Shown here piece by piece: positions 12,901-55,460 of a stretch of 55,488 bases of DNA. Both the position numbers and the translations under genes were made by a program. The stretch is from Candidatus Buchananbacteria bacterium. GTDB lineage: Bacteria > Patescibacteriota > Patescibacteriia > 2-01-FULL-39-33. The first letter of the stretch is position 1. Every line of letters starts with the position of its first letter. Location of the stretch: positions 1 to 55,488 of the forward strand of contig CAIPBY010000086.1 of the NCBI GenBank assembly GCA_903863425.1. Direction: 5' to 3'. Below the pieces are notes generated by a model, which saw nothing but the letters and a program-made list of their open reading frames with translations, was not told the origin of the DNA and made no database searches.

Positions 12901-15141
12901 AGATCCATTATACAATTCCACCCATTGATCGGTTGAACCTTCTATGTTGCAAGTCAACCCGCTATTGCACCCCCGAGGATCGCAAACGCCCCAGACATCA
13001 TAACCGCAACTTTGATTACCACCGCCCCAAGTTGTCACCTTGAAGCCCCAGGCATAGAGAGTTTGAGTCGCCTGAGCCGTAAAAGGATTGGGAGCACAGC
13101 CAGGATCGCCTGACCTGGGAGCGCAAGCATTCCAATCATCTCCAGTGGCATTGCATTTTCTTTCATAACCGCAAGTACCGACTGGATCACAAACGGCCGT
13201 GGTACTAACTGTTCCCGGCTCGCAAGTTTTGTCAGTGCTTCCCTTCTGGCAAGTGCAAGAACTAGGATTACAGATCAATCCTAAAGTAGAACTGCAGACG
13301 CTATTTGCGACATCACAAGTTCTGCTATATCCTCCGCAGAAAGAACCATCTGATCCATCACTGAGGGTAAATCTAAATTTATTGCTATAATTCTCGCCAT
13401 CATAAATACGGATATCAGCCATATTGCCAGCCACGCTGGAATCAGGAATCACATCCGTTACGGTAGTGGAAGAAATCCAATTAGAGGCCGTACTGGTGAC
13501 AGTAGTACTCACCCAAGTCGCATCATCTGACATCTGGCCATTAACCCACTTGGCGTTTTTAAACGCGCCCAAATCCCAAATCACGCTGGAAGTGCTAGGG
13601 CTGGATCTTAAAAATTTATTGCCTATTATATTTGTAGACGAAGGAGCAACGCCATTTCGAGGCACAGCGTTGCAAATTCCCGGTCTTTGTATATTGTTAA
13701 TCTGGAAACCGACTTGGTTATCACTGTTTAGAGAATTATGACTAACCATGACCTTATAATTGGTGGAAGAATCTCTGACCACCTCGGAATCATTGGTATT
13801 ATTAGAAATATCAGAAACAACGTTAGGAACCTCAACAATAATTTGATTATCATCCCAAACCACAGGACAAGGCGAACCGGGAGGAAACGCCTGCGTACTG
13901 CTTTGAGCATTACCACTCTCCCAAAAATTCACACTGCCGAGAGCGGATGATGTGCCGAATCCCCTACCCAAAATAGTGATATAATTTCCGACAGCGCCAT
14001 TGGGAAGCTCAGTTGTGCCGACATTGGTAGTCGGAGAAATAGAGTCTATATGCGGAGGCCAAGCACAAGTACAAGTATTATTATCGCAAACCCCATTACT
14101 GCACTGAGCATTATCAGGTGAACAAGTGCCTCCACTCAAATTATTATTGCAGGACTCGCCTGGACAACTACCACATTCACCACCACAATCCTTGCCAGTT
14201 TCGCCAATATCTTGAATATTATTAAAACAATGCCTGGCACGAATAATGGTTTTAATAGGATTCGAATCTATCAGCGTTCCCAAGCCGCCAAGAGTGGCTT
14301 GAATTTTTAGGGTGGAAGTGGTGCCAGTAGCGAGTCCCGAAGTATCCCAAAGATAAGAAGCATTATTGATCTCCGGGACATTAGTTGGAGCATCTTGAAA
14401 TTGCCCCAATAAAGGCCAAGGATTAACGGGAGCGGTAGATGTTGTCCATAATAATTCCATTTTCGAAATAGTACCTCCTACATTCTTGGCATAACCACCG
14501 ACTTGCAAAGTGGAGGTGCTCTGAGGAACACCAATAGTACGATTATCATTCCAATTTACCCGAATACTCCACGGCCTGCTTAAATCACTGCCATTATCAC
14601 TAAATTTATTGATATAAGTGGACTGGTGACTGGCAGGAGAGCAGGTGTTTTCCCAATCACCCCAAACGCCATTTATACATCTTTGCACTCCGCAATTTCT
14701 TAAATTTTGCTGACCAGCAGTACATGGCTGACCGGGAATATTACCTCCCCCGCCTAATCCAAGCGCCTTCATGATAAATGAAGCGATGGCAAATGAAGCC
14801 ATAATTATAATCAAACCAATTACCCCGGCTATCAAAATTTTCTTAGCCTTGTCCACTTTTTGGGTATCGCCATTCGATATCATCCAAGTCCAACCGCCGT
14901 ACAAAATAATCAAAACTGCCAATACACCCAGAAGCCCTAGAAATATTCTCACAATATTACCTATGAGTGTAGGCAAAGGGGTATTACTGAGCCCAGCCGA
15001 GGCGCCGAAAGTGGCCAAATTACTGGTGGCAGTCTGGGCGAGAACAAAATTAACATTAAAAACAAAAACCAGAGCAACAATAAATATTGCCAGGATAACT
15101 AAGCTTGATTTATTTTTCTTATCCTTTCCTTTCCAAAACAT
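952..15141 (-). CDS. Giant (4729 aa) secreted or surface multidomain protein with an N-terminal VirB2/TrbC-pilin-like membrane anchor; putative adhesin
   Basis: A single uninterrupted 14190-nt ORF. The N-terminus has a signal/TM segment followed by ..[65 protein letters not shown] (two TM helices). Recognisable motifs: IPT/TIG-like ([19 protein letters not shown]), lamin-tail-like ([20 protein letters not shown]), LamG-like ([24 protein letters not shown]), and repeated [27 protein letters not shown]-type Cys-rich repeats (DUF4215/Myxococcus-type). Confidence 0.85.
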   Translation of the reverse strand: [4729 protein letters not shown]

Positions 15142-15167: not shown

Positions 15168-18100
15168 TTAATTGCTTGACATCGAAAGTGGCGTGCCAGT
15201 TACAACACAAGTGCCGAAACAGCATCCTGTTGATCCGCTGATATCTCCGGTAAGTGTGGATGTCGGATGGTCTTTGGTAATAATCCAGCTTCCGTATTTA
15301 TGGGTACTAGACACACTCGCATTATAATAAATCACAGCGCATCTATCTGTCGGCGAACAAATTTTCGCCCCCTCTACCTCCAGGCAATTCTCATGAGCAT
15401 AAGAAGCCGGATTGGTGGAGCTGACATTGTAAATTACGCTTGAACTGGCATCAGTCATACACCCTTGAGTTTCATTAGAGCCGTTTTTCTGGTAATTGCA
15501 ATTATTGCTGGAAGTCGCACCCATTGTAGAGGCGAAAGCTTCATCACCGGCATACCTCGGTCCGTTGCCGGGCAAGAAGCAATTCTGAGTGATGGATTGC
15601 ACGCCCGAACCGACCAAAGGCCCATATTGGACGGATTGATCGAAGTTATTATGGTTTATTACGGCCTGAGTTTGCTCGGCCCAGCCATTAGTCTCACCAC
15701 TTATATTGCTTGATCCAACCCAATACCCCACCGGATTCGCGCCGGGAGTAATGGTTTGCAAAGCCACGAATCTCTGCGCCCAAGAGGCTGTCGTTCTGTC
15801 GCCAGCTGGATCATAACCCCAGCCCGGCTTAAGCGTATCGGCGGCCATAATCCGATCAAAAGTGATTTTTACCTGATCCATAGGCGTCTGACCCTCGTCC
15901 GAGCCATATTTCTGGTCGCCGTAAGGCTCAATTTTGCTTATAAGCGGAGATTGCGAATCGATCAACGAAGAAACATAAAAGCTCCACTGGAAATTATCTC
16001 CAGTAGTGGCGACAGAAGTAGACCAAGGCCCTTTAGCCAGGCCGGCTAATTCCGGCCAAGAAGCTATGTTTGCAGATGACAAGATAGGCAACAAGAATGG
16101 ATTACTTCCAGGACCATCAGCAATACCTAGATTCTGTTTATAAAATTCATTATCATCATAATAATAATTATAATTGCCATTAAACGAGTTATTGGACATA
16201 TCGGCAATACCGCTGGTATAATCAGCTGTCTTGGGATAATAAACAGTCTGCCCGTTTACTAATTTACTGCACTTTGTATCCGCACTGCATCCGCCTCCGA
16301 AACTGCCGGCTACCTCCTTATCTCCATTTACACACCAAGAATCGCTAGTGCCAACACAAGTCTTGAGTGTAGCCGCCTTTATCTCTACTTCAAATTTAGT
16401 CGAGGTAGGAAACGCGCCGGGAGTAGAAGTGCTCCAGCAATAAATCGTATCTCCACAGCTATTTTTCCCGCAAGGTATAGTGCCTATCAAATCAACGGTT
16501 CTGTACTGGTTGGAAAAGGTAGTGGAAGCCGTGGTGGTCTCTATTGACGACACTATGCCATCACCATTTTTATCCATTCTCACAATTATATTATTTGTGA
16601 TAGAAAGAGGATTTATGGCCTTGCTGAAAGTAATTTGGAATTTGGTATTATTGGGCGAATCTTGTGGATCTGGTGTAGAATCATTTCTAATCACGCCGTA
16701 AACGGTATTTGTGCCTCCGGTCACGCTTTCAGTGGTACTTGCATTACCCGTCCAACGAACAATCCTGATGCTATTGCCTTGTTCTCCAACCTCTTTGGCT
16801 CGAATAATTACCGAGGTATTGGGAGTAGTCGTGGCCTCTGCATTTACAATCAAGCTATTAGAATTTATAGCAGTAGCCAAATACTGCGTGGATGATATGG
16901 CGCTAGTTCCCGCCTTAACTGTGATATAGGAAGGAATATCTCTCGGAATAGCTTCATTATCGCTCACAAACATGTATTTTTGTTCGATAGCGCCATTTTG
17001 GATGATATATCTATCTCCTATAACCGGACTATAAACCGTGAAACTCCATCGTGAACTTCTAGGGAAAGGAGCGCCGGTACCAGGAATATTGCTATTGCCA
17101 TCGGCCGTTGTTCGAGACTCTGCGATAAGCCCATTAAGATCCAAAGAATTGGAAGAAACACTCAATGGAAGACAACTAGATCTTACTATACTACCATCTT
17201 TACATACTCCATCAATTTTATAAGTTACACCCAAATAATCTTTCGCATTATTATTATTATTAAAAGTAACATAGGTGCCATCCGGGGATACGGTAAAATC
17301 TATAGTAGTGCTGGCTGGCGTATCTGAAGCCACCGCAAATCCAGAGGGGCTACGCACATAAGCTTTGAAACCACCCTCTACTGCTGTAGCAGGCGTCATC
17401 TCCGCAATCAAGGGATGGCTTTTATCCACATAAAAATGAAAGCTACCGCCTCTATCCCAAATTTTTACAGGAACATTGGGAATCACCGCAGAACCGAAAA
17501 GTGAGGTGACCACTCCCGTCGCTTTCACGGAAACGGTATTGTAATCGTCTGCGTGATCATCCGGCGGAGGAATAATTTCGGAAGCCACCACATAGGGCGG
17601 ATTCAAGTCCAGCTTGCCATTGGTTTCAAACGACCAAGAGTATTCTCCGCCTCCGAAGACAGACTCTGTTTTTCCTAATTTAGTAATTTCCGGACCAAGC
17701 CAAACTTGGAAATATCTGTCTTTGCCATCGGCCGGACCTAAATTGCTATTCGGCGTGAAGACATAAGTTCTATTGTCTGCAGTACTCGAGACTGTGGTAG
17801 AGGCGAAATGATCAACATTAAAGTCAGAGCCGGACATACACCCGCCAGTAGAAGACGCCTCGCAAATATGAATAGTGCTGGTACGAATATACCCATTATC
17901 TTTATAAATCGTACTGCTAGCCACCGGCTCTTTGAAAGTGACAATAATAAGCGTATCAATACTGACATCTTTCTGCTGTGGCGCCGGATAAACGCTCTCA
18001 ATCGGGCCTCGGCCGATATTTGATCGCCATGGATCGTCATGACAGCCCGGGCAAGATGGCGGTGGATTGGGATTATTTCCCTTTCCGCCAAGCCAACCCA

Positions 18101-18509
18101 TGATAAAGGTGGCAATAGCAAAAGAAAGCATCATAATGATTAATCCAATAATAGCATTGGTAATGATTTTCTTGGCCTTGTCCACCTTGGTCGGATCACC
18201 CTCAGCCGTCATCCAAATCCAACCGGCATAAATGATAATCAAAACCAGCACTACGCCGATCATGCCCAGGAAAATCCGAACTAAATTTCCGACAAAAGTG
18301 ACTAAATCGACATTAGGAAGTCCGGAAGCGGTGCCAAAAGCGGTAAGATTGCTATTAATATTGCTGTTTTGAGCCAAAACTGGAGAAGTCGCGCCAGCGC
18401 CGATAATAAAAGATAAAAGCAAAAAGACAGCCAGAAAAGAAACCCAAAAAGCTTTGGATTTTTTCTTGGCTGACGACCTTTGCATGGGTGAAAGCCGTTC
18501 CTTGAACAT
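15168..18509 (-). CDS. Large (1113 aa) surface protein with the same pilin-like N-terminal anchor and Ig-like (Big_5/SbsA-type) segments
   Basis: The ORF lies 26 nt upstream of the giant ORF on the same strand. Its N-terminus ..[65 protein letters not shown] is closely paralogous to the giant protein's N-terminus. Segments such as [26 protein letters not shown] look like bacterial Ig-like domains. Confidence 0.8.
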   Translation of the reverse strand: [1113 protein letters not shown]

Positions 18510-44888: not shown

Positions 44889-44962
44889 GGATCGGTAGAT
44901 CAACTGGTTAGATCGCGTCCCTGTCACGGACGAGGTTGCGGGTTCGAGTCCCGTCCGGTCCG
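44889..44962 (+). tRNA. tRNA-Asp (GUC)
   Basis: GGATCGG-TA-GATC-AACTGGTTA-GATC-G-CGTCC-CTGTCAC-GGACG-AGGTT-GCGGG-TTCGAGT-CCCGT-CCGGTCC-G. No CCA is encoded. Confidence 0.85.
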
Positions 44963-46585
44963 CATAACGGAACAATTAGACGCTAAAGCGTCTTTTTTGT
45001 TTGTATTCATTGATGTTTCTGCGGTTATAGTGGACTGCTTATTGCTATTGTACTCAAAAATGAATCTATGTGGCGAAGTTTCATTATTTGCCAATACTTT
45101 CGCGGTTATTGTCGGGTTATAGTAGATGAACTGAAAAATATCTCTTCTTTGCTCTGGTGATCCATTTTTAAACTTGATATTTAGATTCTTCATAAAATCA
45201 ACATACCGAGTACAAAGGTCAAACCAGCGCTGACTCTGGCTCTCAGTGTCTTCCATTTTCTCTTTAATTATCTTAATTTCTTCTTGGGTCTCCTTTTTTT
45301 GATCTATAAATTCATTATCAGTTAATAGATTGCCGTCTTTATTGTCGGGAGATATTCTTAACCGCAATAAGTTGTCTAATCGTTGCTTACAGCGATTTAA
45401 CTCCGCTTGTTGTTGTTTAATAATGGCTTCCTGTTGCGAGAGTTCTTTTTCGTTTTCGGCAGTTATCTCTTCCATGGCCAACTTATAAAAATCTTCATCC
45501 ATAGTTAGCTCATCCATCTTCTTAGATATTTGCTCCTCCAACTCAGTCTCTCTGATGTAACTTAATCCTGTGCATTTACAACAACGATAGTACGGTAGGC
45601 CTTTTGAAGTAATACCAGAAATATTTCCACCACAAATACCGCATGCAATTAGGTTAGAATATGGATAAAAGCGTTTTTTGCCGACAGGTGTGCTTCTTAA
45701 TCCCAATACTTCTTGCACCCGCTCAAATAGCTCTTTACTAATTATTGGATCATGTCTCGTCTCTGTCGGTGATTCGTAGGGCTCTATAATTCTGCCCGTC
45801 CATCTTATTCCTCCATAATAAAATGGATTAGTCAAAATACGATATAGACTTGATTTAACCATTTTCTTTTCACTTCTACCGCCAGTTAAGCCCCATTTGA
45901 ATGCCTCGCCCCTTAATTTATCAAGCGTATAATGACCAGTGGAGCACTCCTCAAATAATTTCATTATTAACGGGTATAAAAAGGGATCTTTCTCAACTCT
46001 TTTTAATGGCCGTCCTAGATCGCCAAGCGCTACTTGTTTATCTAGCGAGTAAGTCTTGCCAGATATCTTGCCGTTAGGATCAATATTTAAATATCCCCTT
46101 GGAGCAAAATTTGGTATTTCACCTTTATTGAGTTTAGATTGGATATCTCTTTTAACAAACTCCGAAGTATCATCGGAGCTTTTTTTAGACATAGCAAATT
46201 GGAGGGCTAGAATAAACTCTTGTCCTGAATTCTTGGCGTATATTTCATGCGGAGTTCGCACTTCCTTGATGATGCCCTCTTTAAGCATATCCATTATTAG
46301 GCCTGCATCTCTCATATTTCTTGATAAGCGCGAAATATGGTATACCAAAACGGCATTAGCTTTGCCTTGCTCTATAAGCTCAATCAATTCGGCAAACTTG
46401 TCTCTGCCTTGCTTGTATGCTGATTGCGCCTCCTCTAGATCGGCGACAATTTTTAGATCGTGCTGATTGGCAAACTTAATTAGCTCTCTTTTTTGAGAAT
46501 CTAAACTTAAGGTCTGCTTATCCTCACCCTCAGAGGATTTGCGCCTGTAAATAATGTATTTTAATTGTTCTGGCTTATTTTCCAT
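44924..46585 (-). CDS. Large serine recombinase (integrase)
   Basis: MENKPEQLKYIIYRRKSSEGEDKQTLSLDSQ is the resolvase catalytic N-terminus with the Ser nucleophile region. LVYHISRLSRN and the zinc ribbon CGICGG..YYRCCKC precede a coiled-coil. The start is set at 46585; the track's upstream Met at 46630 lies in an inverted-repeat region. The last 13 codons plus the stop are encoded by the antisense of tRNA-Asp. Confidence 0.85.
   Translation of the reverse strand: MENKPEQLKYIIYRRKSSEGEDKQTLSLDSQKRELIKFANQHDLKIVADLEEAQSAYKQGRDKFAELIELIEQGKANAVLVYHISRLSRNMRDAGLIMDMLKEGIIKEVRTPHEIYAKNSGQEFILALQFAMSKKSSDDTSEFVKRDIQSKLNKGEIPNFAPRGYLNIDPNGKISGKTYSLDKQVALGDLGRPLKRVEKDPFLYPLIMKLFEECSTGHYTLDKLRGEAFKWGLTGGRSEKKMVKSSLYRILTNPFYYGGIRWTGRIIEPYESPTETRHDPIISKELFERVQEVLGLRSTPVGKKRFYPYSNLIACGICGGNISGITSKGLPYYRCCKCTGLSYIRETELEEQISKKMDELTMDEDFYKLAMEEITAENEKELSQQEAIIKQQQAELNRCKQRLDNLLRLRISPDNKDGNLLTDNEFIDQKKETQEEIKIIKEKMEDTESQSQRWFDLCTRYVDFMKNLNIKFKNGSPEQRRDIFQFIYYNPTITAKVLANNETSPHRFIFEYNSNKQSTITAETSMNTNKKDALASNCSVMRTGRDSNPQPRP
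44978..44998 (+). terminator. Intrinsic terminator after tRNA-Asp
   Basis: AGACGC-TAAA-GCGTCT followed by TTTTTT. Confidence 0.75.
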
Positions 46586-46732
46586 ATTTTTATAATTCAA
46601 AAAGGGACAACCGAACTGTTGCACACACATTATAAAACAGAGCGTTTTTTAATGAGTCAGTCAGTTGTCCCTTTTTGGGCAATAAAAAAACTCTATTTCT
46701 GAATGTGTGTGCAATTAAATGATACCATAAAT

Positions 46733-46894
46733 TTATCTACTAGTAAAACTGGGCGAGGGGTCGGGATAATTGACTATTTTAATAATTTTAACTAGTCGTG
46801 AGAATATTTCAAATGCTTCCTGTCGTGATAATTTGATTGAGTATTTCTTTTCATACAAATCAATAAATTTTTTCAAGCGTTGTTCATTAACCAT
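46733..46894 (-). CDS. Hypothetical small protein (53 aa)
   Basis: MVNEQRLKKFIDLYEKKYSIKLSRQEAFEIFSRLVKIIKIV... A strong SD-like GGGAGGG lies 6 nt upstream of this ATG. The track's longer version starts further upstream. Confidence 0.5.
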   Translation of the reverse strand: MVNEQRLKKFIDLYEKKYSIKLSRQEAFEIFSRLVKIIKIVNYPDPSPSFTSR

Positions 46895-47067
46895 ATAACC
46901 CTCCCGAATCATGGCGAACAATTTTAGTGAAAAGCGAAACAACCTCAGTGCGACTGAATTTATTAAAATAATATTTTATTGAGATTATTTTGCTGGTCAT
47001 TTATTTATCTAACTTATTAAAGTGTTGGCTCTTGAGGTTGTTTAAAACCCCAAGAGCCAGTAATTAT

Positions 47068-47316
47068 TTATTTCTTCTTGGCCTCAGAGATGATTTTTTT
47101 GCTCTTGTTTAGTTTTTTATTTTTCTTCTCCTCAGAAAGCACTGGACAGCTATCAAGCGAGCAATTGTCATGATCTTTGCATATTTTTTCGCAATAGAAT
47201 GACGACTGCATTTTAACCAAATCAATCAGCAAGTCTATTGCATATTTCTTGGGCATAATTTCGAAATCTTTCTTGAGATCAGCTACGCGAGCCAACCATA
47301 GTTTCTTTGGTTTCAT
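47068..47316 (-). CDS. Hypothetical small Cys-containing, Lys-rich protein (82 aa)
   Basis: ORF only. It contains CEKICKDHDNCSLDSCP. Confidence 0.45.
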   Translation of the reverse strand: MKPKKLWLARVADLKKDFEIMPKKYAIDLLIDLVKMQSSFYCEKICKDHDNCSLDSCPVLSEEKKNKKLNKSKKIISEAKKK

Positions 47317-47507
47317 AGTTTTGTTATTTAGTTAATAATTTAATTTGGTCTTTTCGACCCGACCGCGCGCACCACACCCATGAGATTATGGCTTACTACT
47401 GCTATAGCTAGGGCTAATACTAGGCACTAGTACAAAGTGCATAATTAACTCCTCAACTCTGCACCCCCTAACAATAATGTCTTTACGGCCGCCAATTGTG
47501 CAAAATT

Positions 47508-48317
47508 TCAGCATTTGCTTGTCTGGCAGTGGTGCTGATTTGGCGGTCGTCTAGACACCACTCTCAGGGCATATCCAGTAAAGTAAAATATATCTGGATA
47601 TCTAGCGGCTAGATAGTGTCCGTGCGGTGTTTTACATTCAAAGTACTTGTAAAAATCCTCATGTATTTCTTTACCTATCTGTTTATCTGGCATTATTTCA
47701 TCATTGTGAAATAGCCATTGTCCAAACTTTTCGTTGATTTTAAGGTGCTTATAGAATCTGATATTTTTTTCCTTCTTTGCTTTGGCAACCCTGAGATTAT
47801 CTCTAATAGTCGTCACACATAGATTTAGCGCCTCACTGGCTCGACTTTGGGATATTCTGCCATAGGTTATCCGTCTATATTTTGGCTTCTTCCGCAAGTC
47901 ATTTTCGAAATATATTTTAGTGATGTAGGCGGACAATTTTTTGTTGGATGAAAGATTTTTTAAAAAGATAGTATTGGCTCGCTCGGTTCTTATTATTGTT
48001 CGTCCATAGCGTAATCTATGCTTATTCATAATCCTTATCGCTGAAACTGGAAACATCTTTTGCTTACTGACATATCGGAATAGTCCAGATCTCATTAGCT
48101 TTCTCTTAAACAATTTGAATTGTTTGATTTTAACAACTTTCATTACTTGAGTAGTATCTGCCCAATTGCCCTGATTAGCACATAGCGTTCTTGTTGCCAG
48201 CCACGCTCTTAATCCTAACAATTGATCAAAATGATGCTTACAGAAGTGAAATAGAATGCGAATGGGAATATTAGCAAGTTTCGGCTCACCCCTGTTTTTA
48301 GGTTTTAGATCTTTCAT
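47508..48317 (-). CDS. Hypothetical basic protein with a probable HTH (possible replication or regulatory protein of the element)
   Basis: 269 aa and Arg/Lys-rich. ISQSRASEALNLCVTTIRDNL looks like an HTH. I recognise no family. Confidence 0.45.
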   Translation of the reverse strand: MKDLKPKNRGEPKLANIPIRILFHFCKHHFDQLLGLRAWLATRTLCANQGNWADTTQVMKVVKIKQFKLFKRKLMRSGLFRYVSKQKMFPVSAIRIMNKHRLRYGRTIIRTERANTIFLKNLSSNKKLSAYITKIYFENDLRKKPKYRRITYGRISQSRASEALNLCVTTIRDNLRVAKAKKEKNIRFYKHLKINEKFGQWLFHNDEIMPDKQIGKEIHEDFYKYFECKTPHGHYLAARYPDIFYFTGYALRVVSRRPPNQHHCQTSKC

Positions 48318-48570
48318 AGTATTGATTTAAAATTGATTCATTTATGGCTATTTGCAGTTCTGGGTCGTGAATTTTTATAAAGCTGAGGTACTTGCCATTT
48401 TTTTTAGTTGTTGGGTTCTTAACTACTGGATTTGGGTATGTTTGATTATGCAAAACCGTAAAGCCGATTATTTCTATGGCTTCGTTAATTACGACATTAG
48501 CTGTGGCTTTCAGGCTCGTGGTCGTTTGAGGTGTTAACCTAAATTTAGTTATTTTTATTTGGTGAATCAT
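48298..48570 (-). CDS. SpoVG-like small nucleic-acid-binding protein
   Basis: 90 aa. IKITKFRL..SLKATANVVINEAIEIIGFTVLHNQ...KKNGKYLSFIKIHDPELQIAINESILNQY parallels B. subtilis SpoVG ([29 protein letters not shown]...[27 protein letters not shown]), as recalled from memory. Confidence 0.45.
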   Translation of the reverse strand: MIHQIKITKFRLTPQTTTSLKATANVVINEAIEIIGFTVLHNQTYPNPVVKNPTTKKNGKYLSFIKIHDPELQIAINESILNQYYERSKT

Positions 48571-48661
48571 GTTGAGTGGCTGAAATAAAATGAAAAAACA
48601 AAAAAAGTATCATGTCTTAATGATACCTTTTTGAGCTTTTAAAATATAAGAAATAAGTGTA

Positions 48662-49441
48662 CTACAGTTTTTTCTTCCTTTCTCTAATTATGGTTTTGAT
48701 CCTACGTGTTTCAGCATACCCATAGTTGCTTTTTGAGATAAATGTTTCCTGAACTAGTTTTCCTAGCTTGGCGTCTTCCATGTCTATGTGTGCCTCAATA
48801 AAATCTAGAATTTCTTTTTTTGGTTTAATCCTAATTCTTCCAATTTTACAATTTCGATCTTGGAGTAATTTTAACCTTGGCCTAATTTGTGTTTTATAAT
48901 TTTTTTCTACATAATCGACAATATCCCTTCTAGAGGCGTAAGGGCTGATTCTGATTGAAATAGGGAAATACTCATATGCTGCTTCATCATCTTCCTTTCT
49001 ACATCCCATAGCGCAAATAGTATTTACTGGCTCTCTTGTTGGTTTTCTTGTGGTATTGAATAGTATATATACCAGCATGGGTACAGCCCAATAAGTATAG
49101 TACAATTTATATTCTTTACATATATTTTCTGCTTCATTTTTAAGCGATAATATTAGTGAATGATCGCTTAATGGGAAATCAATCTCTAGACCCTCTTTTG
49201 GTATAGACGAGTAATGAGATATTTTAATCATCTCGGCATAGTTTTCTAAATTTTCTGGCGTATATCCATTGAGGGGTATATTGTATTTTCCCCTAATCCC
49301 AGCTATCTGCTTACTAACTTCATCTAATTTGATTATAGCCAAAAAATAATTCCAAAGTTTCTCAAATCCTTGGCTTTTTCTGGGTCTTATTTTCTTTCGT
49401 TTTAGATCTGGTAGTTTCATTTTTTTAGTCGGTTGGCACAT
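48662..49441 (-). CDS. Hypothetical protein (259 aa)
   Basis: ORF only. An alternative start gives MKLPDLKRKK (49420). It is followed by the hairpin GTATCAT..ATGATAC (48607-48626), which is flanked by A and T runs. Confidence 0.5.
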   Translation of the reverse strand: MCQPTKKMKLPDLKRKKIRPRKSQGFEKLWNYFLAIIKLDEVSKQIAGIRGKYNIPLNGYTPENLENYAEMIKISHYSSIPKEGLEIDFPLSDHSLILSLKNEAENICKEYKLYYTYWAVPMLVYILFNTTRKPTREPVNTICAMGCRKEDDEAAYEYFPISIRISPYASRRDIVDYVEKNYKTQIRPRLKLLQDRNCKIGRIRIKPKKEILDFIEAHIDMEDAKLGKLVQETFISKSNYGYAETRRIKTIIRERKKKL

Positions 49442-49698: not shown

Positions 49699-49727
49699 TT
49701 GAATTTATTGTCTAGTTTTGATATAGT
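49699..49727 (+). promoter_or_regulatory. Sigma70-like promoter
   Basis: TTGAAT (49699-49704), a 17-nt spacer, then TATAGT (49722-49727). It sits in a long AT-rich divergent intergenic region. Confidence 0.5.
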
Positions 49728-49758
49728 AGGAATACAATAATGACCTAAATTACTAGAT

Positions 49759-49885
49759 TCTAGTGACATGGTCGCAAGTCCAGTTAGACATGAAGAACCC
49801 ATCATGTGTTTTTTGTCTAACTGGCCGTTTCGGGAAACCGAAATGAGTGGCGCAAGTCACTAGACTCACGTGGTGGGCTTTTTGA
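49759..49885 (+). ncRNA. Structured 5' leader or small RNA with mutually exclusive helices and GNRA tetraloops
   Basis: TCTAGTGAC (49759-67) pairs with GTCACTAGA (49856-64). CCAGTTAGACA (49780-90) pairs with TGTCTAACTGG (49813-23). TTTCGG-GAAA-CCGAAA is a hairpin. GTGGC-GCAA-GTCAC competes with the first helix. CCCATCATGTG (49798-808) pairs with CACGTGGTGGG (49868-78), followed by CTTTTT. Confidence 0.45.
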
Positions 49886-49904
49886 TTGTTTAAATTAAAA
49901 AAAT

Positions 49905-50132
49905 ATGAAGTTTATATTTTATTTTTTAGTGAGCTATCTCTTGTATGGTGCTTTTTTGATTGGGCGCGATTTTACTACTAACTGGAGGAATGCTCCTGAA
50001 TATGTGCGAGATCCCAATCCAGTCATGATAATTTATGCCTTAATCCGTAAGCCATTATTGATCAATGGTGTCGCCATGTGCTTGGTAATAGTGGGTGTGA
50101 TTGGGCTTATTCTGTTTTTTATATTCGGTTAA
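49905..50132 (+). CDS. Small two-TM membrane protein (75 aa)
   Basis: MKFIFYFLVSYLLYGAFLIG... and LLINGVAMCLVIVGVIGLILFFIFG. Confidence 0.5.
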   Translation: MKFIFYFLVSYLLYGAFLIGRDFTTNWRNAPEYVRDPNPVMIIYALIRKPLLINGVAMCLVIVGVIGLILFFIFG

Positions 50133-50136
50133 TCAT

Positions 50137-51588
50137 ATGGATAAACCAATGAAAACTCGCCTAACCCCGCCAGAGTGGTTCGTTTTGTTTCTCCGCGACA
50201 AGAAGTACCCGAACGAAGACAAGGGCTCATTAAATAGAGCAGAGTTCCTGGCCTTGAATAACTGGAAACCGAGGAAAGATGAGGAAAAGGAATTCAATCA
50301 ACTCATGAGCCAATGGCAGAATATCTTGTTTGCGGAGATAGGCGCTAAGATGGCATTTTACGGCCTTGAGTGGCAGTGTTTTAAGGCCAGAGACTGGTTG
50401 ATGTATTTCAGCTATAAGGATCAAGAATTTGGTCTATTAAAGAATTATGTGGAGAATCACATAAACTCGTCAACATTTGACCCGCTGGATATTCTACTTA
50501 GAAATAGCTGGATTGAATTTGACCACCTGACATATCTGCTGACTTTTGAATTGATGGATTTGGGACTGCGCAAGGATTTATGGATTTGTGATCGCAATGT
50601 CATGTTAGTAGAGAACTATTTGAGGGATCAAGAAACTGTCGCCGACATATTGATTGTCAATGGCGGCCTCACTGAAGTGGCCAAAGAAAAGATAGCCGAG
50701 GCCATAGTCAACAAAATGCACTGCGGCGCTTATCCCGATTATCGATTTTTTCTGTATTGGTATGACTTCATTATGTTCCCAACCATAGAAATAGGCAGAA
50801 GATTTGTTAAGCGCCATAATGTTTATTGTTTGCCGACAGAGCAGGAGAAGAAAGAGCATAAATGCGCCAGCTCTAAAATACTGGAAGAATTCACCTTAAA
50901 AAGAGCAATAGTTGATCATGTCCAGAAATACAACATTAACTTAAAAGAGCAATTCCAAGATATTGCCAAGGAATTATTGGATGAGGGATTGTTGGAAACT
51001 CTCCCGCTTTTCTGGGGCAATAGCAATCAGATTAAGGGCGATAAAGGAGAACACACCAATTATAGCGGCCAGAAGCTATATGATGAGTGGAAACGTTATA
51101 AAGGCTTGGCCGAAGCTGAATTACAATATTTGGTCAGTGGCGGATCGCTGGAAGTAGGTTATCTGGACAAACGCAAATATTGTTCCTTTGCTAAGGAGGA
51201 AAATAAAGTTGTCTCGGCTAAGAGCTTGTATGAGCTAAAGAGCGATTATGGGCTGGTCAGGGATTTTAAACAACAGATGTCTGATCTGCAATTTCTCGGC
51301 CCTATGATAAGTCTGTGGGACAAGAAGAGTTATGGAAGCAATCGCTTGATTCTTTCGCAGTCGACGGAGACCATCAAAAAGTCAGCCGAGATTCTCGGAG
51401 CCGATTTTAGCGATAAGATCGAAGAAATTAAGGGCTACATTGATGAACTAGATAAGCTCGCAAAAAAAGTTGATGATCAGGCCGATAGCTTGGTTGACTG
51501 CTATGTGGCCAACGGTTGGAATAATACAGCAACAAGAAAATTTTCTATCAGAATTAAATTGTCTTCACTAAAAGATCTACAATTATGA
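50137..51588 (+). CDS. Hypothetical 483-aa protein, no recognisable family
   Basis: The start was moved to MDKPMKTRL (ATG 50137), 4 nt after the upstream stop. It overlaps the SppA start by 4 nt (ATGA). Confidence 0.6.
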   Translation: MDKPMKTRLTPPEWFVLFLRDKKYPNEDKGSLNRAEFLALNNWKPRKDEEKEFNQLMSQWQNILFAEIGAKMAFYGLEWQCFKARDWLMYFSYKDQEFGLLKNYVENHINSSTFDPLDILLRNSWIEFDHLTYLLTFELMDLGLRKDLWICDRNVMLVENYLRDQETVADILIVNGGLTEVAKEKIAEAIVNKMHCGAYPDYRFFLYWYDFIMFPTIEIGRRFVKRHNVYCLPTEQEKKEHKCASSKILEEFTLKRAIVDHVQKYNINLKEQFQDIAKELLDEGLLETLPLFWGNSNQIKGDKGEHTNYSGQKLYDEWKRYKGLAEAELQYLVSGGSLEVGYLDKRKYCSFAKEENKVVSAKSLYELKSDYGLVRDFKQQMSDLQFLGPMISLWDKKSYGSNRLILSQSTETIKKSAEILGADFSDKIEEIKGYIDELDKLAKKVDDQADSLVDCYVANGWNNTATRKFSIRIKLSSLKDLQL

Positions 51589-52412
51589 AATTCTACCTAT
51601 CGTCAAAAATTAAGAAAATAGTCAAAATTACATCTATTGTTATTCTTGCTGTAACAGTAATAATTTTTTGGGTTGTCGTCTCTTGTTTGTTTATTGACGA
51701 GTGGCCAAGTAATAATAAAGATAAGAGTGATTGTAACGTGGCCAACATCAAGTTGTACGGCGATTTATATACCTATGTCAAAGAAACTGATGATTGCAAA
51801 GATTGCGCCTCATCAGAAGAAGTGGTTAATCAGATCAGGGACGCTGAAGCAAATAATGATATTAAAGCAATATTACTTACTATTGATTCTACTGGTGGCA
51901 ACCCTGTGGCGGCCGAAGAAATTGCCAACACCCTAAAACAAGCGAGCAAGCCAACCGTGGCTCTAATAAGAAGTAGCGGTGATTCTGGGGCATATTTTGC
52001 AGCTACTGGCGCTGAGAGAATATTTGCCAGTGACATGTCAGATGTAGGATCAATAGGTATAACTTCTTCGTATGTAGATAATTCTAAAAAGAATCAGAAA
52101 GATGGCCTGACATATAATTCGCTCAGTCTTGGAAAATACAAGGATACTGGCAATCCAGATAAGCCATTAACCGATGAAGAAAAGAAAATGATATTAAATG
52201 ATTTGCAAGTTGGCTATGATATATTTATTAAGAATGTGGCTAATAATAGACACTTAGATATAGAGAAAGTTAAAGCGCTGGCTGATGGCAATAGTATGGA
52301 TGGTCAAAAAGCCTTGGATAATGGCCTCATAGATCAATTAGGTAGTTTGTCGGATGTTGAGACATATTTGGCCAATAAGATCGGCGGAGAGACACTATAC
52401 GTCTGTCGTTAA
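51585..52412 (+). CDS. sppA: Membrane-anchored S49 family signal peptide peptidase (SppA, 36K type)
   Basis: An N-terminal TM segment. IKAILLTIDSTGGNPVAAEEIANTLKQASKPTVALIRSSGDSGAYFAATGAERIFA contains the Ser nucleophile region. SIGITSS, GKYKDTGNPDKPLTDEEKKM and DGQKALDNGLIDQLG also fit. Confidence 0.8.
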   Translation: MKFYLSSKIKKIVKITSIVILAVTVIIFWVVVSCLFIDEWPSNNKDKSDCNVANIKLYGDLYTYVKETDDCKDCASSEEVVNQIRDAEANNDIKAILLTIDSTGGNPVAAEEIANTLKQASKPTVALIRSSGDSGAYFAATGAERIFASDMSDVGSIGITSSYVDNSKKNQKDGLTYNSLSLGKYKDTGNPDKPLTDEEKKMILNDLQVGYDIFIKNVANNRHLDIEKVKALADGNSMDGQKALDNGLIDQLGSLSDVETYLANKIGGETLYVCR

Positions 52413-52540
52413 AACAATAATTGAAACAGCGAGAGCGGACATAGAATCCGCTCTCGCTTTGGCTTTGACTTTTACGCTCAAATATGGCATTATAAAAGCA
52501 ATTTAACTCCCAATAAAATATAATATCAACGAAATAATAT

Positions 52541-53992
52541 ATGTTTGAACAATCATTCAAAAACATCGATAACATCCTCCACACCGACTCTGGCTGTGGC
52601 ACTGAGCTTGATTATGTTGAGCAGACATCCTGGATCCTATTTTTGAAGTATCTGGACGACTTGGAAGAGACCAAAAGGATCGAAGCGGCGTTGGCGGGGA
52701 AGGTCTATGATCATATATTGATGCCAGAATATACCTGGGACAGCTGGGCTTGTCCCAAAGGTAGCGACGGCAAGCTGGATCACAACAAAGCGTTGGATGG
52801 CGATGATTTGAAGGATTTTGTTGATCACAAACTTTTTCCTTATCTTAAGAAGTTTAAAGCGGAGGAACCGAACACTATTGAATATAAAATCGGTGAGATT
52901 TTTTCTGAGCTCAAAAATAAGATCTCTAGCGGTTATAAACTCCGTGAGATTTTAAACATCGTTGACGGCATGCACTTTCGACTGTATGAGGAGAAGCACG
53001 AACTATCACATCTCTACGAGGCCAAAATCAAGAACATGGGTAACGCTGGACGAAACGGCGGAGAGTATTACACACCTCGTCCACTCATTAAAACTATAGT
53101 CAAAGTAGTAGCGCCCAAGATTGGCGACACTATATATGACGGAGCTTGTGGCAGCGCAGGATTTTTGGTTGAGGCTTACAATTATCTCACTCAAAATCAA
53201 TCAGAACTTTCCTCAAGTCAAATGGATACTCTTCAAAATAATACTTTTTATGGCAAGGAGATAAAATCGTTGGCCTACATTATTGGCATTATGAATATGA
53301 TTCTTCATGGTGTTGAAGCGCCGAATATTAGGCACATGAATACCTTGTCGCAAAATATAAATGAAATTCAAGAGAAAGATCGTTACTCAATAATTTTAGC
53401 AAATCCGCCATTTGGCGCTGGTATCGGCCGAGAGATTCAACAGAATTTTCCAATCAAGACTGGTGAGACTGCTTTTCTCTTTCTCCAGCACTTTATCAAA
53501 ATTCTTAAGGCAGGCGGTAAAGCAGGTATCGTCATCAAGAATACTTTCTTATCTAACACCGATAATGCCAGCGTGTCATTGCGCAAACTGCTCTTGGAAA
53601 ATTGTAATCTACATACCGTATTGGACTTGCCAGGTGGCGCATTCCAGGGCGCTGGTGTGAAGACTGTGGTTTTATTTTTTGAGAAGGGCGCGCCGACAGA
53701 GAAGATTTGGTTTTATCAATTAAACCTTGATCGCAATCTTGGCAAAGGCCAGCCACTAAGCGAAGCTGACTTGGCCGAGTTTGTGGAATTACAGAAGACA
53801 AAGACCAATGGCGATAATTCATGGAGTATTGATATTAAAAATATTGACCAGTCAACTTTTGATTTGTCAGTAAAGAATCCTAGTAAGGGTGATGAAGTTG
53901 CTTTGCGTGAGCCGAAGGATATAGTCGAAGAGATAAAAAGATTAAATGAAGAAGCTGAGCAAACTTTGAAGGAAATCAGTAAAATTCTATAA
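52541..53992 (+). CDS. hsdM: Type I restriction-modification system methyltransferase subunit
   Basis: The HsdM N-domain (DYVEQTSWILFLKYLDD), GEYYTPRPL, motif I DGACGSAGFLV and motif IV ILANPPFG. Confidence 0.9.
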   Translation: MFEQSFKNIDNILHTDSGCGTELDYVEQTSWILFLKYLDDLEETKRIEAALAGKVYDHILMPEYTWDSWACPKGSDGKLDHNKALDGDDLKDFVDHKLFPYLKKFKAEEPNTIEYKIGEIFSELKNKISSGYKLREILNIVDGMHFRLYEEKHELSHLYEAKIKNMGNAGRNGGEYYTPRPLIKTIVKVVAPKIGDTIYDGACGSAGFLVEAYNYLTQNQSELSSSQMDTLQNNTFYGKEIKSLAYIIGIMNMILHGVEAPNIRHMNTLSQNINEIQEKDRYSIILANPPFGAGIGREIQQNFPIKTGETAFLFLQHFIKILKAGGKAGIVIKNTFLSNTDNASVSLRKLLLENCNLHTVLDLPGGAFQGAGVKTVVLFFEKGAPTEKIWFYQLNLDRNLGKGQPLSEADLAEFVELQKTKTNGDNSWSIDIKNIDQSTFDLSVKNPSKGDEVALREPKDIVEEIKRLNEEAEQTLKEISKIL

Positions 53993-53996
53993 TGTT

Positions 53997-55460
53997 ATGA
54001 AATTAAAATCCATTAAGATTCTAAATTATAGAAGTGTCGAAGAAGTAATTATTGAGATAGACTCGTTAGATGATCGAAGTTTTACTTATGGACTAATTGG
54101 TATAAATGAAGCAGGAAAAAGTAGTATCCTGAAATCATTGGCTCTTTTAGATGAACACACAGGAATAAAACCCGAAGCGCATGATTTTTATGACAAGACA
54201 AAGCCCATTGAAATAATTTATCTTTATAATCAATCCAAAGAGGAAATAGCAGAAAATAAAAGTATTCTATTAGAAAAATTACCAGAGCTTAAGACTAAAA
54301 TAGAAAATCGTGAGCTTGAAGAGGTTGAGTTAAAGGGTGGCTTTTTAATTACTGATTTACAAAATAAAAAAAGTATTATTTTTTCAAAACTTTCTAGTGA
54401 TCAAAAAGAATTGATCGAAAATACTTTGGCTGATACTGTTTATGCAAATTCGCATTATACTATTTATTGGAAATCTGAGGACAAATATCTTATTTCTAGT
54501 CAGATTAGTTTAGCGAGTTTCTCTGAAGATCCTAGTAATGTTTCTATCCCGTTAAAAAATTGTTTTACTCTTATTGGTCTAGATACAAAAGAAAAGATCA
54601 AAGAAAAAATCATTCAGATTTCCAATGATTCGACAGAGCGAGAATTGCTTCGTGAAGACCTTGGTAAAAAAGTTACTAACTTAATAAAAAAGGTATGGCC
54701 AAACCATCCAGTTGTTATTACTTTTGATATTTCGGGGGATTCTATTAACTTTCACATTAAAGATCCAAATGGTAAACCTCGAACTACCAATCAAAGAAGC
54801 GATGGCTTTAAGCAGTTTGTCTCTTTTCTTCTTAATATTTCTTCTCAAAAAGAGAATAATGAACTATCAGATAGTTTAATTTTATTAGATGAGCCAGAGA
54901 CACACCTACATCCTCAAGCTCAAGAGTATTTTTTAGCAGAATTGATAAAATTAACTCAATCGGAAAATAATATCTGTTTTTTTGCTACCCATTCAAATTA
55001 TATGGTAGATAAAAATATTTTATCTAGAAACTTTAGGGTGGTTAAAGTTGAAAAAGACGGCAAAACCATGATCGAAAGGTTGAATAAAAAAATATCAACC
55101 TATGCCAGTGTTAATTATGAAGTATTTAATATTTCTAGCACTGATTACTTTAATGAATTGTATAGTTGTTTGCACCAAAAATATATTGACGAAGCAATAA
55201 ACGAAGGAGAAGAAAAAGAAAGAAGTTTTATAAAAAATTTTGATAAAGACTATCTACTTCCTAAATCTAAGAAAAAAAATAAGTGGAAACACCTTAATAA
55301 AAAAGGAGAAGAAATTGAAGAAAATATTTCTATTTATTCATATCTGAGACACTTAATTCACCATCCAGAAAGAAGAGAGGCAAATAAATTATTTTCTTTA
55401 GATAAAGATTTGTCTGTGTGTATAGAAGAGATGATTAAAATTAAAGAAGATGAAAAATAA
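53997..55460 (+). CDS. ABC-type (AAA_15/AAA_21, OLD/RecF-like) ATPase inserted in the type I R-M operon; the C-terminal domain may be HEPN-like (PrrC/RloC-style)
   Basis: Walker A GINEAGKSSILKSL, a signature-like RSDGFKQ, Walker B plus D-loop LILLDEPETHLHPQAQ, and an H-loop FFATHS. The C-terminal roughly 130 aa contains YSYLRHLIHHPER (an Rx4H pattern). The ORF starts 5 nt after the hsdM stop and overlaps the hsdS start. Confidence 0.65.
   Translation: MKLKSIKILNYRSVEEVIIEIDSLDDRSFTYGLIGINEAGKSSILKSLALLDEHTGIKPEAHDFYDKTKPIEIIYLYNQSKEEIAENKSILLEKLPELKTKIENRELEEVELKGGFLITDLQNKKSIIFSKLSSDQKELIENTLADTVYANSHYTIYWKSEDKYLISSQISLASFSEDPSNVSIPLKNCFTLIGLDTKEKIKEKIIQISNDSTERELLREDLGKKVTNLIKKVWPNHPVVITFDISGDSINFHIKDPNGKPRTTNQRSDGFKQFVSFLLNISSQKENNELSDSLILLDEPETHLHPQAQEYFLAELIKLTQSENNICFFATHSNYMVDKNILSRNFRVVKVEKDGKTMIERLNKKISTYASVNYEVFNISSTDYFNELYSCLHQKYIDEAINEGEEKERSFIKNFDKDYLLPKSKKKNKWKHLNKKGEEIEENISIYSYLRHLIHHPERREANKLFSLDKDLSVCIEEMIKIKEDEK

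Follow-up and report, generated by a model that had tools for sequence, protein, structure and literature searches.

Three genes at positions 49905 to 52412 of the 55,488-nucleotide (nt) contig CAIPBY010000086.1 from Candidatus Buchananbacteria (assembly GCA_903863425.1; this whole stretch of DNA is called the window below) form a real operon that is preceded by an RNA leader. The leader is LOOT (Rfam RF03000), and the genes encode a 75-amino-acid (aa) protein with two transmembrane (TM) segments, a 483-aa protein of an uncharacterised family and a membrane-anchored S49 peptidase of the SppA type. Taken singly, the peptidase is a new member of a known family, LOOT is a known orphan motif and the 483-aa protein represents an uncharacterised family that has no structural match; their combination is a variant membrane-peptidase operon. 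We tentatively suggest, with considerable reserve, that the locus is a mobile, LOOT-gated module for envelope proteolysis. Modules of this kind are rare and reside on integrase- or recombinase-bearing islands, apparently of Patescibacteria. Besides LOOT, they encode between one and three small membrane proteins, which vary from locus to locus and often bear a cytoplasmic zinc ribbon, and an S49 peptidase of a separate island clade; the 483-aa protein is usually present too, or else its central domain alone, fused to S49.

The coordinates of the three genes, all located on the plus strand, were taken from a program-made listing of the open reading frames (ORFs) in the window; they are collected with those of the other features in Table 1. 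For the second gene, the longest mechanical ORF opens at a TTG codon at position 50101, and the ATG codon at 50137 (MDKPMKTRL...) yields the 483-aa product; the latter start was chosen because it agrees with the N-termini of the homologues and with the gene call on the identical public contig. This start follows the end of the first gene at 50132 after a gap of 4 nt, and the third gene begins at 51585 in an ATGA overlap with the end of the second at 51588. The existence of full-length homologues with 35-86% identity shows that these are real genes and not chance ORFs. Hydropathy analysis assigns two TM segments to the 75-aa protein, none to the 483-aa protein and one to the S49 peptidase, and a strong hairpin past the S49 gene is the likely end of the transcription unit. 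A preliminary description, made by a model from the sequence alone, had already recognised the compact array with its gap and overlap, the two TM segments of the first product, a promoter and leader belonging to the operon itself, and its position immediately upstream of a restriction-modification (R-M) locus. All of these features were borne out: a promoter-like TTGAAT-17-TATAGT site and the structured LOOT RNA precede the genes, and hsdM follows directly downstream of them.

The same description was right about the presence of a leader but missed that this leader is a known orphan RNA motif, the most informative feature of the locus. The promoter-like site is located in the 463-nt gap upstream of the operon, and LOOT begins 15 nt after it. 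In cmscan, the RNA scores 89.9 bits, well over the gathering score of 46.4 (E = 8e-16; positions 1-121 of the 121 in the model), all consensus helices are present, and the region folds with a z-score of -7.6 relative to shuffled sequences into a compact, self-contained structure. LOOT also scores 80.7 bits in L013, 69.7 bits in L025/L026 and 75.2 bits in L027, three related loci whose gene content is given below. These three and the window represent every locus examined in which the upstream DNA is present, and in all four, which are independent of each other, LOOT lies on the same strand as, and upstream of, the first membrane-protein gene, with about 20-85 nt between its tail and the next start codon. 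The sequence TGATATAGTA recurs at the equivalent place before LOOT in L013 and L027; it or a close variant is found 15-30 nt ahead of LOOT in each of the four loci. The promoter-like architecture of L027 is identical in type to that of the window (TTGAGT-17-TATAGT with TG). A G-rich stretch and a U-run come after LOOT on its 3' side in 4/4 loci; in the window, this tail contains a weak 5-bp hairpin and a T-run, and its U-run ends approximately 21 nt short of the start codon at 49905. These few nucleotides leave no space for a second promoter before the first gene, and the ~21-27 nt from U-run to start codon in the window and in L025 yielded no promoter-like site. Since neither locus has room for a further promoter there, we infer that LOOT acts in cis on the genes that follow it.

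A base-pairing of LOOT with its own tail is a marginal lead and not a result. The apex of the long LOOT hairpin (49798-49806) is complementary to the G-rich stretch in the window, and the best duplex between tail and core maps to the apex of this hairpin in 4/4 loci, with 0.022, 0.050, 0.000 and 0.004 of the shuffled tails performing as well. The pairs in question are CCCAUCAUG with CGUGGUGGG in the window, CCCGUCAUC with GGUGGCGGG in L027, GGCCAUUC with GGGUGGCC in L025, and CCCCACG with CGUGGGG in L013. A different pairing of 8 bp, CUAGUGAC:GUCACUAG, appears in the minimum-free-energy fold of the window and was dropped; inspection of the L013 sequence revealed no counterpart. LOOT also carries a conserved GAAA loop and a conserved internal loop (49745-49772 with 49834-49837; CCUAAA...CAUGG), with CUAAAC...GCAUG at the same positions in L013, L025 and L027. 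This internal loop resembles the 11-nt GAAA tetraloop receptor (CCUAAG...UAUGG). The main text of Weinberg et al. 2017 (PMC5737381) carries no discussion of LOOT, and the accessible literature, which includes that paper and the Rfam 14 paper (PMC7779021), assigns it neither a function nor a gene association. A DNA pattern derived from LOOT had no match in IMG/VR.

Close homologues of the 483-aa protein, with 35-86% identity, are present in four independent loci: the window, contig P0002, L001 and L013. The 18.9-kb ENA contig P0002 from sample ERZ1426829 (86% identity) contains an integrase, an AAA_25 protein, a 179-aa gene with a 570-nt gap ahead of it, the 483-aa homologue and an overlapping S49 gene. 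L001-L003 (35% identity) encode a secreted Cys-rich protein, a zinc-ribbon TM protein, a 200-aa multi-TM protein and the 483-aa homologue, downstream of which follow an S49 gene that looks truncated, a tRNA and two integrases. L013 (43% identity) carries S49, LOOT, a small single-TM Cys-rich protein, the 483-aa homologue and dnaB, and the fragmentary L012 and L015 (82-85% identity) have a 289-aa multi-TM gene upstream and a 271-aa S49 gene downstream. S49 is linked to the 483-aa homologue in 4/4 of the close-homologue loci, and it lies directly downstream in three of them, with a start/stop overlap in the window and P0002 and a 21-nt gap in L001. Every close homologue is directly preceded by another gene, and this gene encodes a membrane protein wherever it can be read, the 179-aa product of P0002 being outside this count. 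The occupants of the membrane-protein position in the other loci are unrelated proteins, and the upstream genes share no detected family; when the accessory membrane proteins were searched against Pfam, nothing emerged beyond zinc-ribbon and SNase matches below the threshold, and the 75-aa protein had no family match in Pfam, PHROGs, NCBIfam or PADLOC.

Two further loci extend this picture. L025/L026, from a metagenome-assembled genome (MAG) of Ca. Buchananbacteria, combines two integrases, LOOT, two zinc-ribbon-TM proteins, an S49 peptidase (66% identity) and a multi-TM protein. The first gene after LOOT in L025 (6798-7619) encodes one of these zinc-ribbon-TM proteins, whose outward part has a sub-threshold match to PF00565 (E = 0.001; 20.0 versus 21 bits). 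L027 comprises LOOT, two TM proteins and a 415-aa S49 peptidase (positions 4647-5894; 65% identity), the first ~130 residues of which are homologous to residues ~165-300 of the 483-aa family (hmmsearch E = 1e-19) and precede the TM anchor at residues 149-178. The L027 protein is either a natural domain fusion or the product of a deletion. As judged from the sequences, the conserved coupling and the L027 fusion speak for the 483-aa protein and S49 being functionally linked. The pairing of these two proteins proposed in the preliminary description stands for all close homologues and is strengthened by the fusion, but it does not extend to the distant members of the family, which occur in at least five contexts without S49, or to L025, which has no 483-aa gene.

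The third protein had been described as a membrane-anchored, SppA-like S49 peptidase, and its matches to PF01343 (E = 2e-34; 119.2 bits, cut-off 24.9) and to the SppA_dom model TIGR00706 (170.7 bits, cut-off 155.45), together with its one N-terminal TM segment, confirm this identity. SppA proteins of E. coli and Bacillus subtilis in the PDB were matched as well (3BEZ, E = 4e-25; 3RST, E = 7e-22). Ser134 (GDSGAY) aligns with Ser409 of the E. coli enzyme and Lys186 (GKYKDTG) with Lys209, and both residues are invariant in 4/4 aligned operon-linked S49 sequences. Ser409 and Lys209 are the catalytic residues of E. coli SppA, and the protein appears from its sequence to be a catalytically competent Ser/Lys peptidase of the SppA type. 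Its hydrophobic TM segment spans residues 8-41, lysines lie ahead of this segment, and both Cys50 and a C-terminal cysteine are conserved; on account of these lysines and cysteines, an N-in/C-out topology with an extracytoplasmic catalytic domain is predicted. SppA genes related to it are numerous (596 matches below 1e-30), and the nearest relatives are annotated as SppA in Patescibacteria MAGs. The named relatives come from Ca. Buchananbacteria, Parcubacteria, Falkowbacteria, Uhrbacteria and "Patescibacteria group" MAGs, with one attributed to Bacilli; 2/3 of the GTDB matches are from Patescibacteria. On these grounds a member of the Patescibacteria is the probable host. A scan of IMG/VR for the S49 found nothing. 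The S49 copies of the window, L015 and L001 form a clade at 61-70% identity, to which the peptidases of L025/L026 and L027 belong as well and which stands apart from the ordinary, ~50%-identical SppA of Patescibacteria, and neither a 483-aa homologue nor LOOT was found within 10 kb of the genes for these ~50%-identical peptidases.

The preliminary description had found no recognisable motif in the 483-aa protein, and indeed no significant match was obtained in Pfam, PHROGs, NCBIfam or PADLOC (the best E-values, 0.013-0.023, are far below the cut-offs), or with either the protein or its family profile among the PDB sequences. A word-indexed search of 5.8 billion clusters returned four relatives, at 100, 86, 83 and 35% identity, and an HMMER profile run exhaustively over 1.84 billion representatives returned 75, of which 45 scored below 1e-10 and most are 480-620 aa long. 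None of 51 aligned family members matched a meaningful Pfam family, a PHROG, or a portal or terminase family. The family has no relatives in IMG/VR, among the INPHARED phages or among the PLSDB plasmids, and a scan of GTDB genomes found nothing. Structure prediction followed by a fold search had been proposed in that description; the AlphaFold (AF2) model built from the 51-sequence alignment has a predicted local distance difference test (pLDDT) score of 82.8 and a predicted TM-score of 0.80, and consists mostly of helices with two beta-hairpins (an earlier run with a 4-sequence alignment reached a pLDDT of 45 and was not used). Foldseek found no match to this model in the PDB (best E = 0.33) or in BFVD (best E = 0.089), with TM-scores of at most 0.17; weak matches to winged-helix proteins (Pol III RPC3, MarR, PadR, JetA) are at noise level. 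No acidic, basic or His column is invariant in the family alignment, in which the nearly invariant residues are Leu, Trp, Tyr, Gly, Ser and Asn, and the protein is mildly acidic (net charge -6; family median isoelectric point 5.3), with only its first 45 residues being basic. The lack of such columns, together with the acidic, all-alpha model, suggests that the protein is non-catalytic, and the model makes it a candidate for a new fold that is tied to mobile elements. A role as DNA mimic or nucleic-acid-binding protein is unsupported, given the mild acidity, the basic residues being limited to the first 45 and the winged-helix matches being noise.

In the arrangement that we tentatively favour, a LOOT-gated envelope-proteolysis module, the locus would be transcribed as a single unit running from the extended -10 promoter through LOOT and its G-rich, U-run-bearing tail and the three genes to the strong hairpin. 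Acting in cis, LOOT would serve as a folded leader, attenuator- or riboswitch-like, which controls what level of transcription or translation the genes ~20-85 nt further on receive. In the manner of SppA, the S49 peptidase would work on the outer side of the membrane and cleave membrane-embedded or exported peptides, whether co-encoded or foreign; the co-encoded membrane proteins would be its most likely substrates or regulators. The 483-aa protein would have no catalytic role and act in the cytoplasm as an adaptor or regulator, docking either on the N-terminus of S49, which lies on that side of the membrane, or on its TM anchor; this placement is suggested by the L027 fusion, in which a domain of the family stands before the TM anchor.

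Several observations weigh against this reading. L025 lacks a 483-aa gene, so the protein is not essential to the module, and the distant members of its family occur in a wholly different gene context without a peptidase. In L013, the S49 gene lies upstream of LOOT and its product is of the ordinary type, grouping with the product of the unlinked L016 gene (68% identity), so that its adjacency could be a coincidence; the L027 fusion, in turn, could be the product of a deletion. A local hairpin or canonical terminator after LOOT is absent from L013, L025 and L027, and Rfam lists LOOT, a metagenome-based motif, under the type 'Gene; sRNA' (Rfam 14 paper, PMC7779021). All four LOOT loci were reached through homology to S49 or to the 483-aa protein and hence do not represent LOOT in general. 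Finally, a stricter test of the apex-tail pairing, which required contiguous runs, was marginal (79, 1080, 196 and 144 of 2000 shuffles did as well), and the longest run of L025 lies elsewhere.

Table 1. Positions of the operon, its RNA leader and neighbouring features in the window, with one cassette from a related locus
Feature	Position	Strand	Basis
Promoter-like site TTGAAT-17-TATAGT with upstream TG (extended -10)	49699-49727	+	Consensus match only
LOOT RNA (Rfam RF03000), full length, 5' leader	49742-49861	+	cmscan
LOOT 3' tail: G-rich CGUGGUGGGC (49869-49878), UUUUU (49879-49883), GAUUG; terminator-like	49862-49888	+	Sequence
75-aa two-TM protein	49905-50132	+	ORF; TM segments ~1-21 and 45-75 (hydropathy)
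483-aa cytoplasmic, mainly alpha-helical protein, uncharacterised family	50137-51588	+	ORF, homologues, AF2 model
275-aa S49 (SppA-type) peptidase with N-terminal TM anchor	51585-52412	+	ORF, PF01343, TIGR00706
G+C-rich hairpin, 12-13 bp with 8 G-C pairs, terminator-like	52428-52458	both strands	16 nt past the S49 stop
Promoter-like site for hsdM	52465-52493		Sequence scan; 3' of the hairpin
hsdM (Type I)	52541-53992		PF02384 2.8e-61; PADLOC MTase_I 3.8e-155
487-aa AAA_15/AAA_21 ATPase	53997-55460		PADLOC Old, AriA and GajA models, best 4.4e-27
Four island ORFs (82, 269, 90 and 259 aa) between recombinase and LOOT promoter	46700-49441	minus	No family matches
Example of distant-family cassette	L021 7348-11488		Gene neighbourhood

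The genomic surroundings of the operon bear on a first alternative, namely that it is an anti-phage system acting by abortive infection or exclusion, in which the 483-aa protein senses the phage, the small membrane protein damages or seals the membrane, S49 activates or restrains this effector, and LOOT keeps a toxic operon silent. The operon belongs to an island whose left edge is a tRNA-Asp gene (44889-44963), the 3' end of which is overlapped by the end of a large serine recombinase ORF (44924-46630, minus strand) with Resolvase, Recombinase and Zn_ribbon_recom domains; genes for L20, IF3, tmRNA and SmpB lie to the left of the tRNA. The island extends beyond the end of the window, and a second copy of the tRNA-Asp 3' end was not found within the window. 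Four island proteins of 259, 90, 269 and 82 aa have no homologue in any related locus, the 90-aa product having a weak SpoVG-like match (E = 0.003). A defence role fits this island context, in which the operon stands beside hsdM and an OLD/AriA/GajA-like AAA_15 ATPase, and it fits the rarity and mobility of the module and the variable membrane partners next to a conserved core, which resemble swappable effectors. The 86%-identical homologue in P0002 is likewise followed by RadC-Dam, an AlwI-type endonuclease, a methyltransferase, an OLD-family protein and a UvrD-like helicase, the L025 module adjoins a 1587-aa AAA_11/AAA_12 helicase and a WYL protein, and genes for distant members of the family mostly converge with R-M genes of Type III or Type ISP. 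What the preliminary description had taken for a defence-type context stands in so far as a mobile island with R-M and OLD/AAA_15-type genes is concerned, but none of the three proteins has a significant match in PADLOC-DB 2.0: a 2TM effector model reached E = 0.053 with the 75-aa protein, AbiTi reached E = 0.013 with the 483-aa protein and had no passing stretch, and S49 had none. Furthermore, the S49 domain is predicted to face outward, away from cytoplasmic phage components, no sensor, NTPase or nuclease motif can be recognised in the 483-aa protein, and L013 adjoins dnaB with no defence genes in view; guilt by association is in any case weak on integrative islands, which gather R-M genes anyway. 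We consider a defence function unlikely on balance, albeit worth keeping in mind.

The AAA_15/AAA_21 ATPase gene follows hsdM after a 4-nt gap and may be either an insertion in the R-M locus or a gene associated with it; the remainder of that locus lies beyond the end of the window.

The distant members of the 483-aa family lend themselves to another explanation, in which the three genes are co-transcribed but independent cargo: the 483-aa protein would be a backbone protein of integrative elements with a regulatory, DNA-handling or anti-restriction function, and S49 and the membrane proteins would constitute an unrelated envelope module on a shared LOOT-driven transcript. In the contexts examined (L006/7, L008-10, L011, L021/22, L023/24), the distant-family gene is always the last of a cassette that encodes a ParB_N-N6_N4 methyltransferase, often a second methyltransferase, a ~127-aa helix-turn-helix-like protein and a ~70-aa coiled-coil protein. 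These cassettes reside in ~8.5-kb integrative elements with ImmR/ImmA and a serine recombinase, and frequently converge with R-M genes of the Type III-like or Type ISP kind; neither S49 nor LOOT was found in the scanned distant loci L005-L011, L021 and L023. The existence of at least five such contexts without S49 favours independent cargo, as do the L025 locus, with LOOT, membrane proteins and S49 alone, and the fact that the island in the window also has a large serine recombinase, which is 30-32% identical to those of L011 and L021. Against it speak the S49 link kept in every close homologue from 35 to 86% identity, the placement of S49 directly downstream in 3/4 loci, the in-frame fusion of a family domain to S49 in L027, and the lack of any cassette partner in the island of the window. 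The 483-aa family as a whole belongs to small integrative elements, and its association with S49 and LOOT is specific to the subfamily represented in the window; that the two parts of the operon have nothing to do with each other strikes us as rather unlikely.

As regards the RNA, LOOT could instead be an independent, trans-acting small RNA (sRNA) that ends at the U-run, its position before the operon being incidental or due to shared mobility. The sRNA typing in Rfam, the G-rich stretch and U-run found in all four loci and the compact, self-contained fold are in line with this possibility. Against it speak the identical strand and order in 4/4 loci, the distance of only ~20-85 nt between the tail of LOOT and the next start codon, and the failure to find a promoter-like site in the ~21-27 nt available in the window and L025. 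In addition, LOOT stays constant while the proteins encoded downstream differ, which is typical of a leader that is attached to a type of operon. A trans-acting LOOT of this kind seems improbable to us.

The remaining possibility, that a prophage or satellite left behind a morphogenesis remnant with a divergent portal (the 483-aa protein) and a lambda-C-type head-maturation protease (S49), a case that the preliminary description had itself raised as contrary to its proposal, is essentially excluded and was rejected on profile, fold and context evidence, because the order of a ~480-aa gene and an S49 gene that mimics lambda B-C and the S49 match to phrog_53 'head maturation protease' (E = 4.5e-51) are outweighed by the lack of any portal, terminase or PHROG match among 51 family members, a confident model with no counterpart in the PDB or BFVD, the lack of viral and plasmid relatives in IMG/VR, INPHARED and PLSDB, the TM anchor, SppA_dom-level score and Patescibacteria SppA relatives of the peptidase, and the absence of capsid, terminase, scaffold or tail genes from every locus examined.

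Returning to the reading as a LOOT-gated envelope-proteolysis module, its parts can be compared with known systems. The S49 peptidase is like SppA (MEROPS family S49) in its Ser/Lys dyad. In B. subtilis, SppA has a single N-terminal TM anchor and an outward domain, the same layout that is predicted for the S49 of the window, and sppA is co-transcribed with yteJ, which encodes a membrane-protein partner (SppI) and is reminiscent of the small membrane protein of this operon. The peptidase differs from known SppA systems in belonging to an island-borne clade, in being preceded by LOOT, and in being coupled or fused to a family that has no counterpart in known SppA operons; unlike the SppA-YteJ/SppI pair, moreover, the membrane partners are not conserved in modules of the type found in the window. 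Operons for NfeD and SPFH (stomatin) proteins also co-transcribe a membrane-anchored ClpP/S49-like protease with a partner, and S49 shows weak similarity to NfeD1b_N (E = 9.9e-08, below the cut-off), but the 483-aa partner is not an SPFH/Band_7 protein (no Pfam match) and the best-scoring protease family is S49/SppA. The lambda portal B and head protease C genes are alike in the succession of a ~480-aa and an S49 gene and in the phrog_53 match; they differ in that the 483-aa protein lacks portal similarity in sequence and fold, the protease is TM-anchored, and virion genes and viral relatives are missing. With riboswitch and attenuator leaders, LOOT has in common that a structured RNA comes right after the promoter and right before the first gene, followed by a G-rich stretch and a U-run; a canonical terminator hairpin is lacking in 3/4 LOOT loci, and a switching mechanism would be hypothetical here. 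Compared with the Rfam record, LOOT is found here on the window contig, which also carries housekeeping genes, and on a contig of a Ca. Buchananbacteria MAG, and, in contrast to its sRNA typing, as the 5' leader of membrane-protein/S49 operons in all four loci.

Two observations from the remainder of the window may be added. The minus strand holds a giant ORF of 4729 aa (952-15141) and, next to it, a 1113-aa ORF (15168-18509); large surface proteins are common in bacteria of the Candidate Phyla Radiation (CPR), and these ORFs are consistent with such proteins. Beside a tRNA-Phe gene, Rfam gives two tRNA-like matches, at 27376-27470 (95 nt, 48.3 bits) and 27291-27358 (32.6 bits), neither of which is called by ARAGORN.

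For LOOT, an orphan among structured RNAs since 2017, the locus offers a likely host lineage, a consistent gene context and the hypothesis of a leader that acts in cis. The 483-aa family, with ~75 sequence clusters among 1.8 billion representatives, has a confidently modelled fold that has no match in the PDB or among viral proteins. If the operon did serve in defence, it would be a new type of system. A more far-reaching version, which we regard as quite improbable, would make LOOT the sensing or regulatory RNA of an unrecognised class of mobile membrane-proteolysis conflict systems in Patescibacteria, directed at phages, competitors or the host interface, in which the RNA gates expression, the 483-aa protein with its new fold couples a cytoplasmic signal to the outward-facing S49, and the swappable membrane proteins are effectors or substrates. 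The envelope and the interface with the host are central to the life of CPR bacteria, and an island-borne SppA that is coupled or fused to the 483-aa family suggests that mobile elements in these organisms carry an envelope-proteolysis function of their own.

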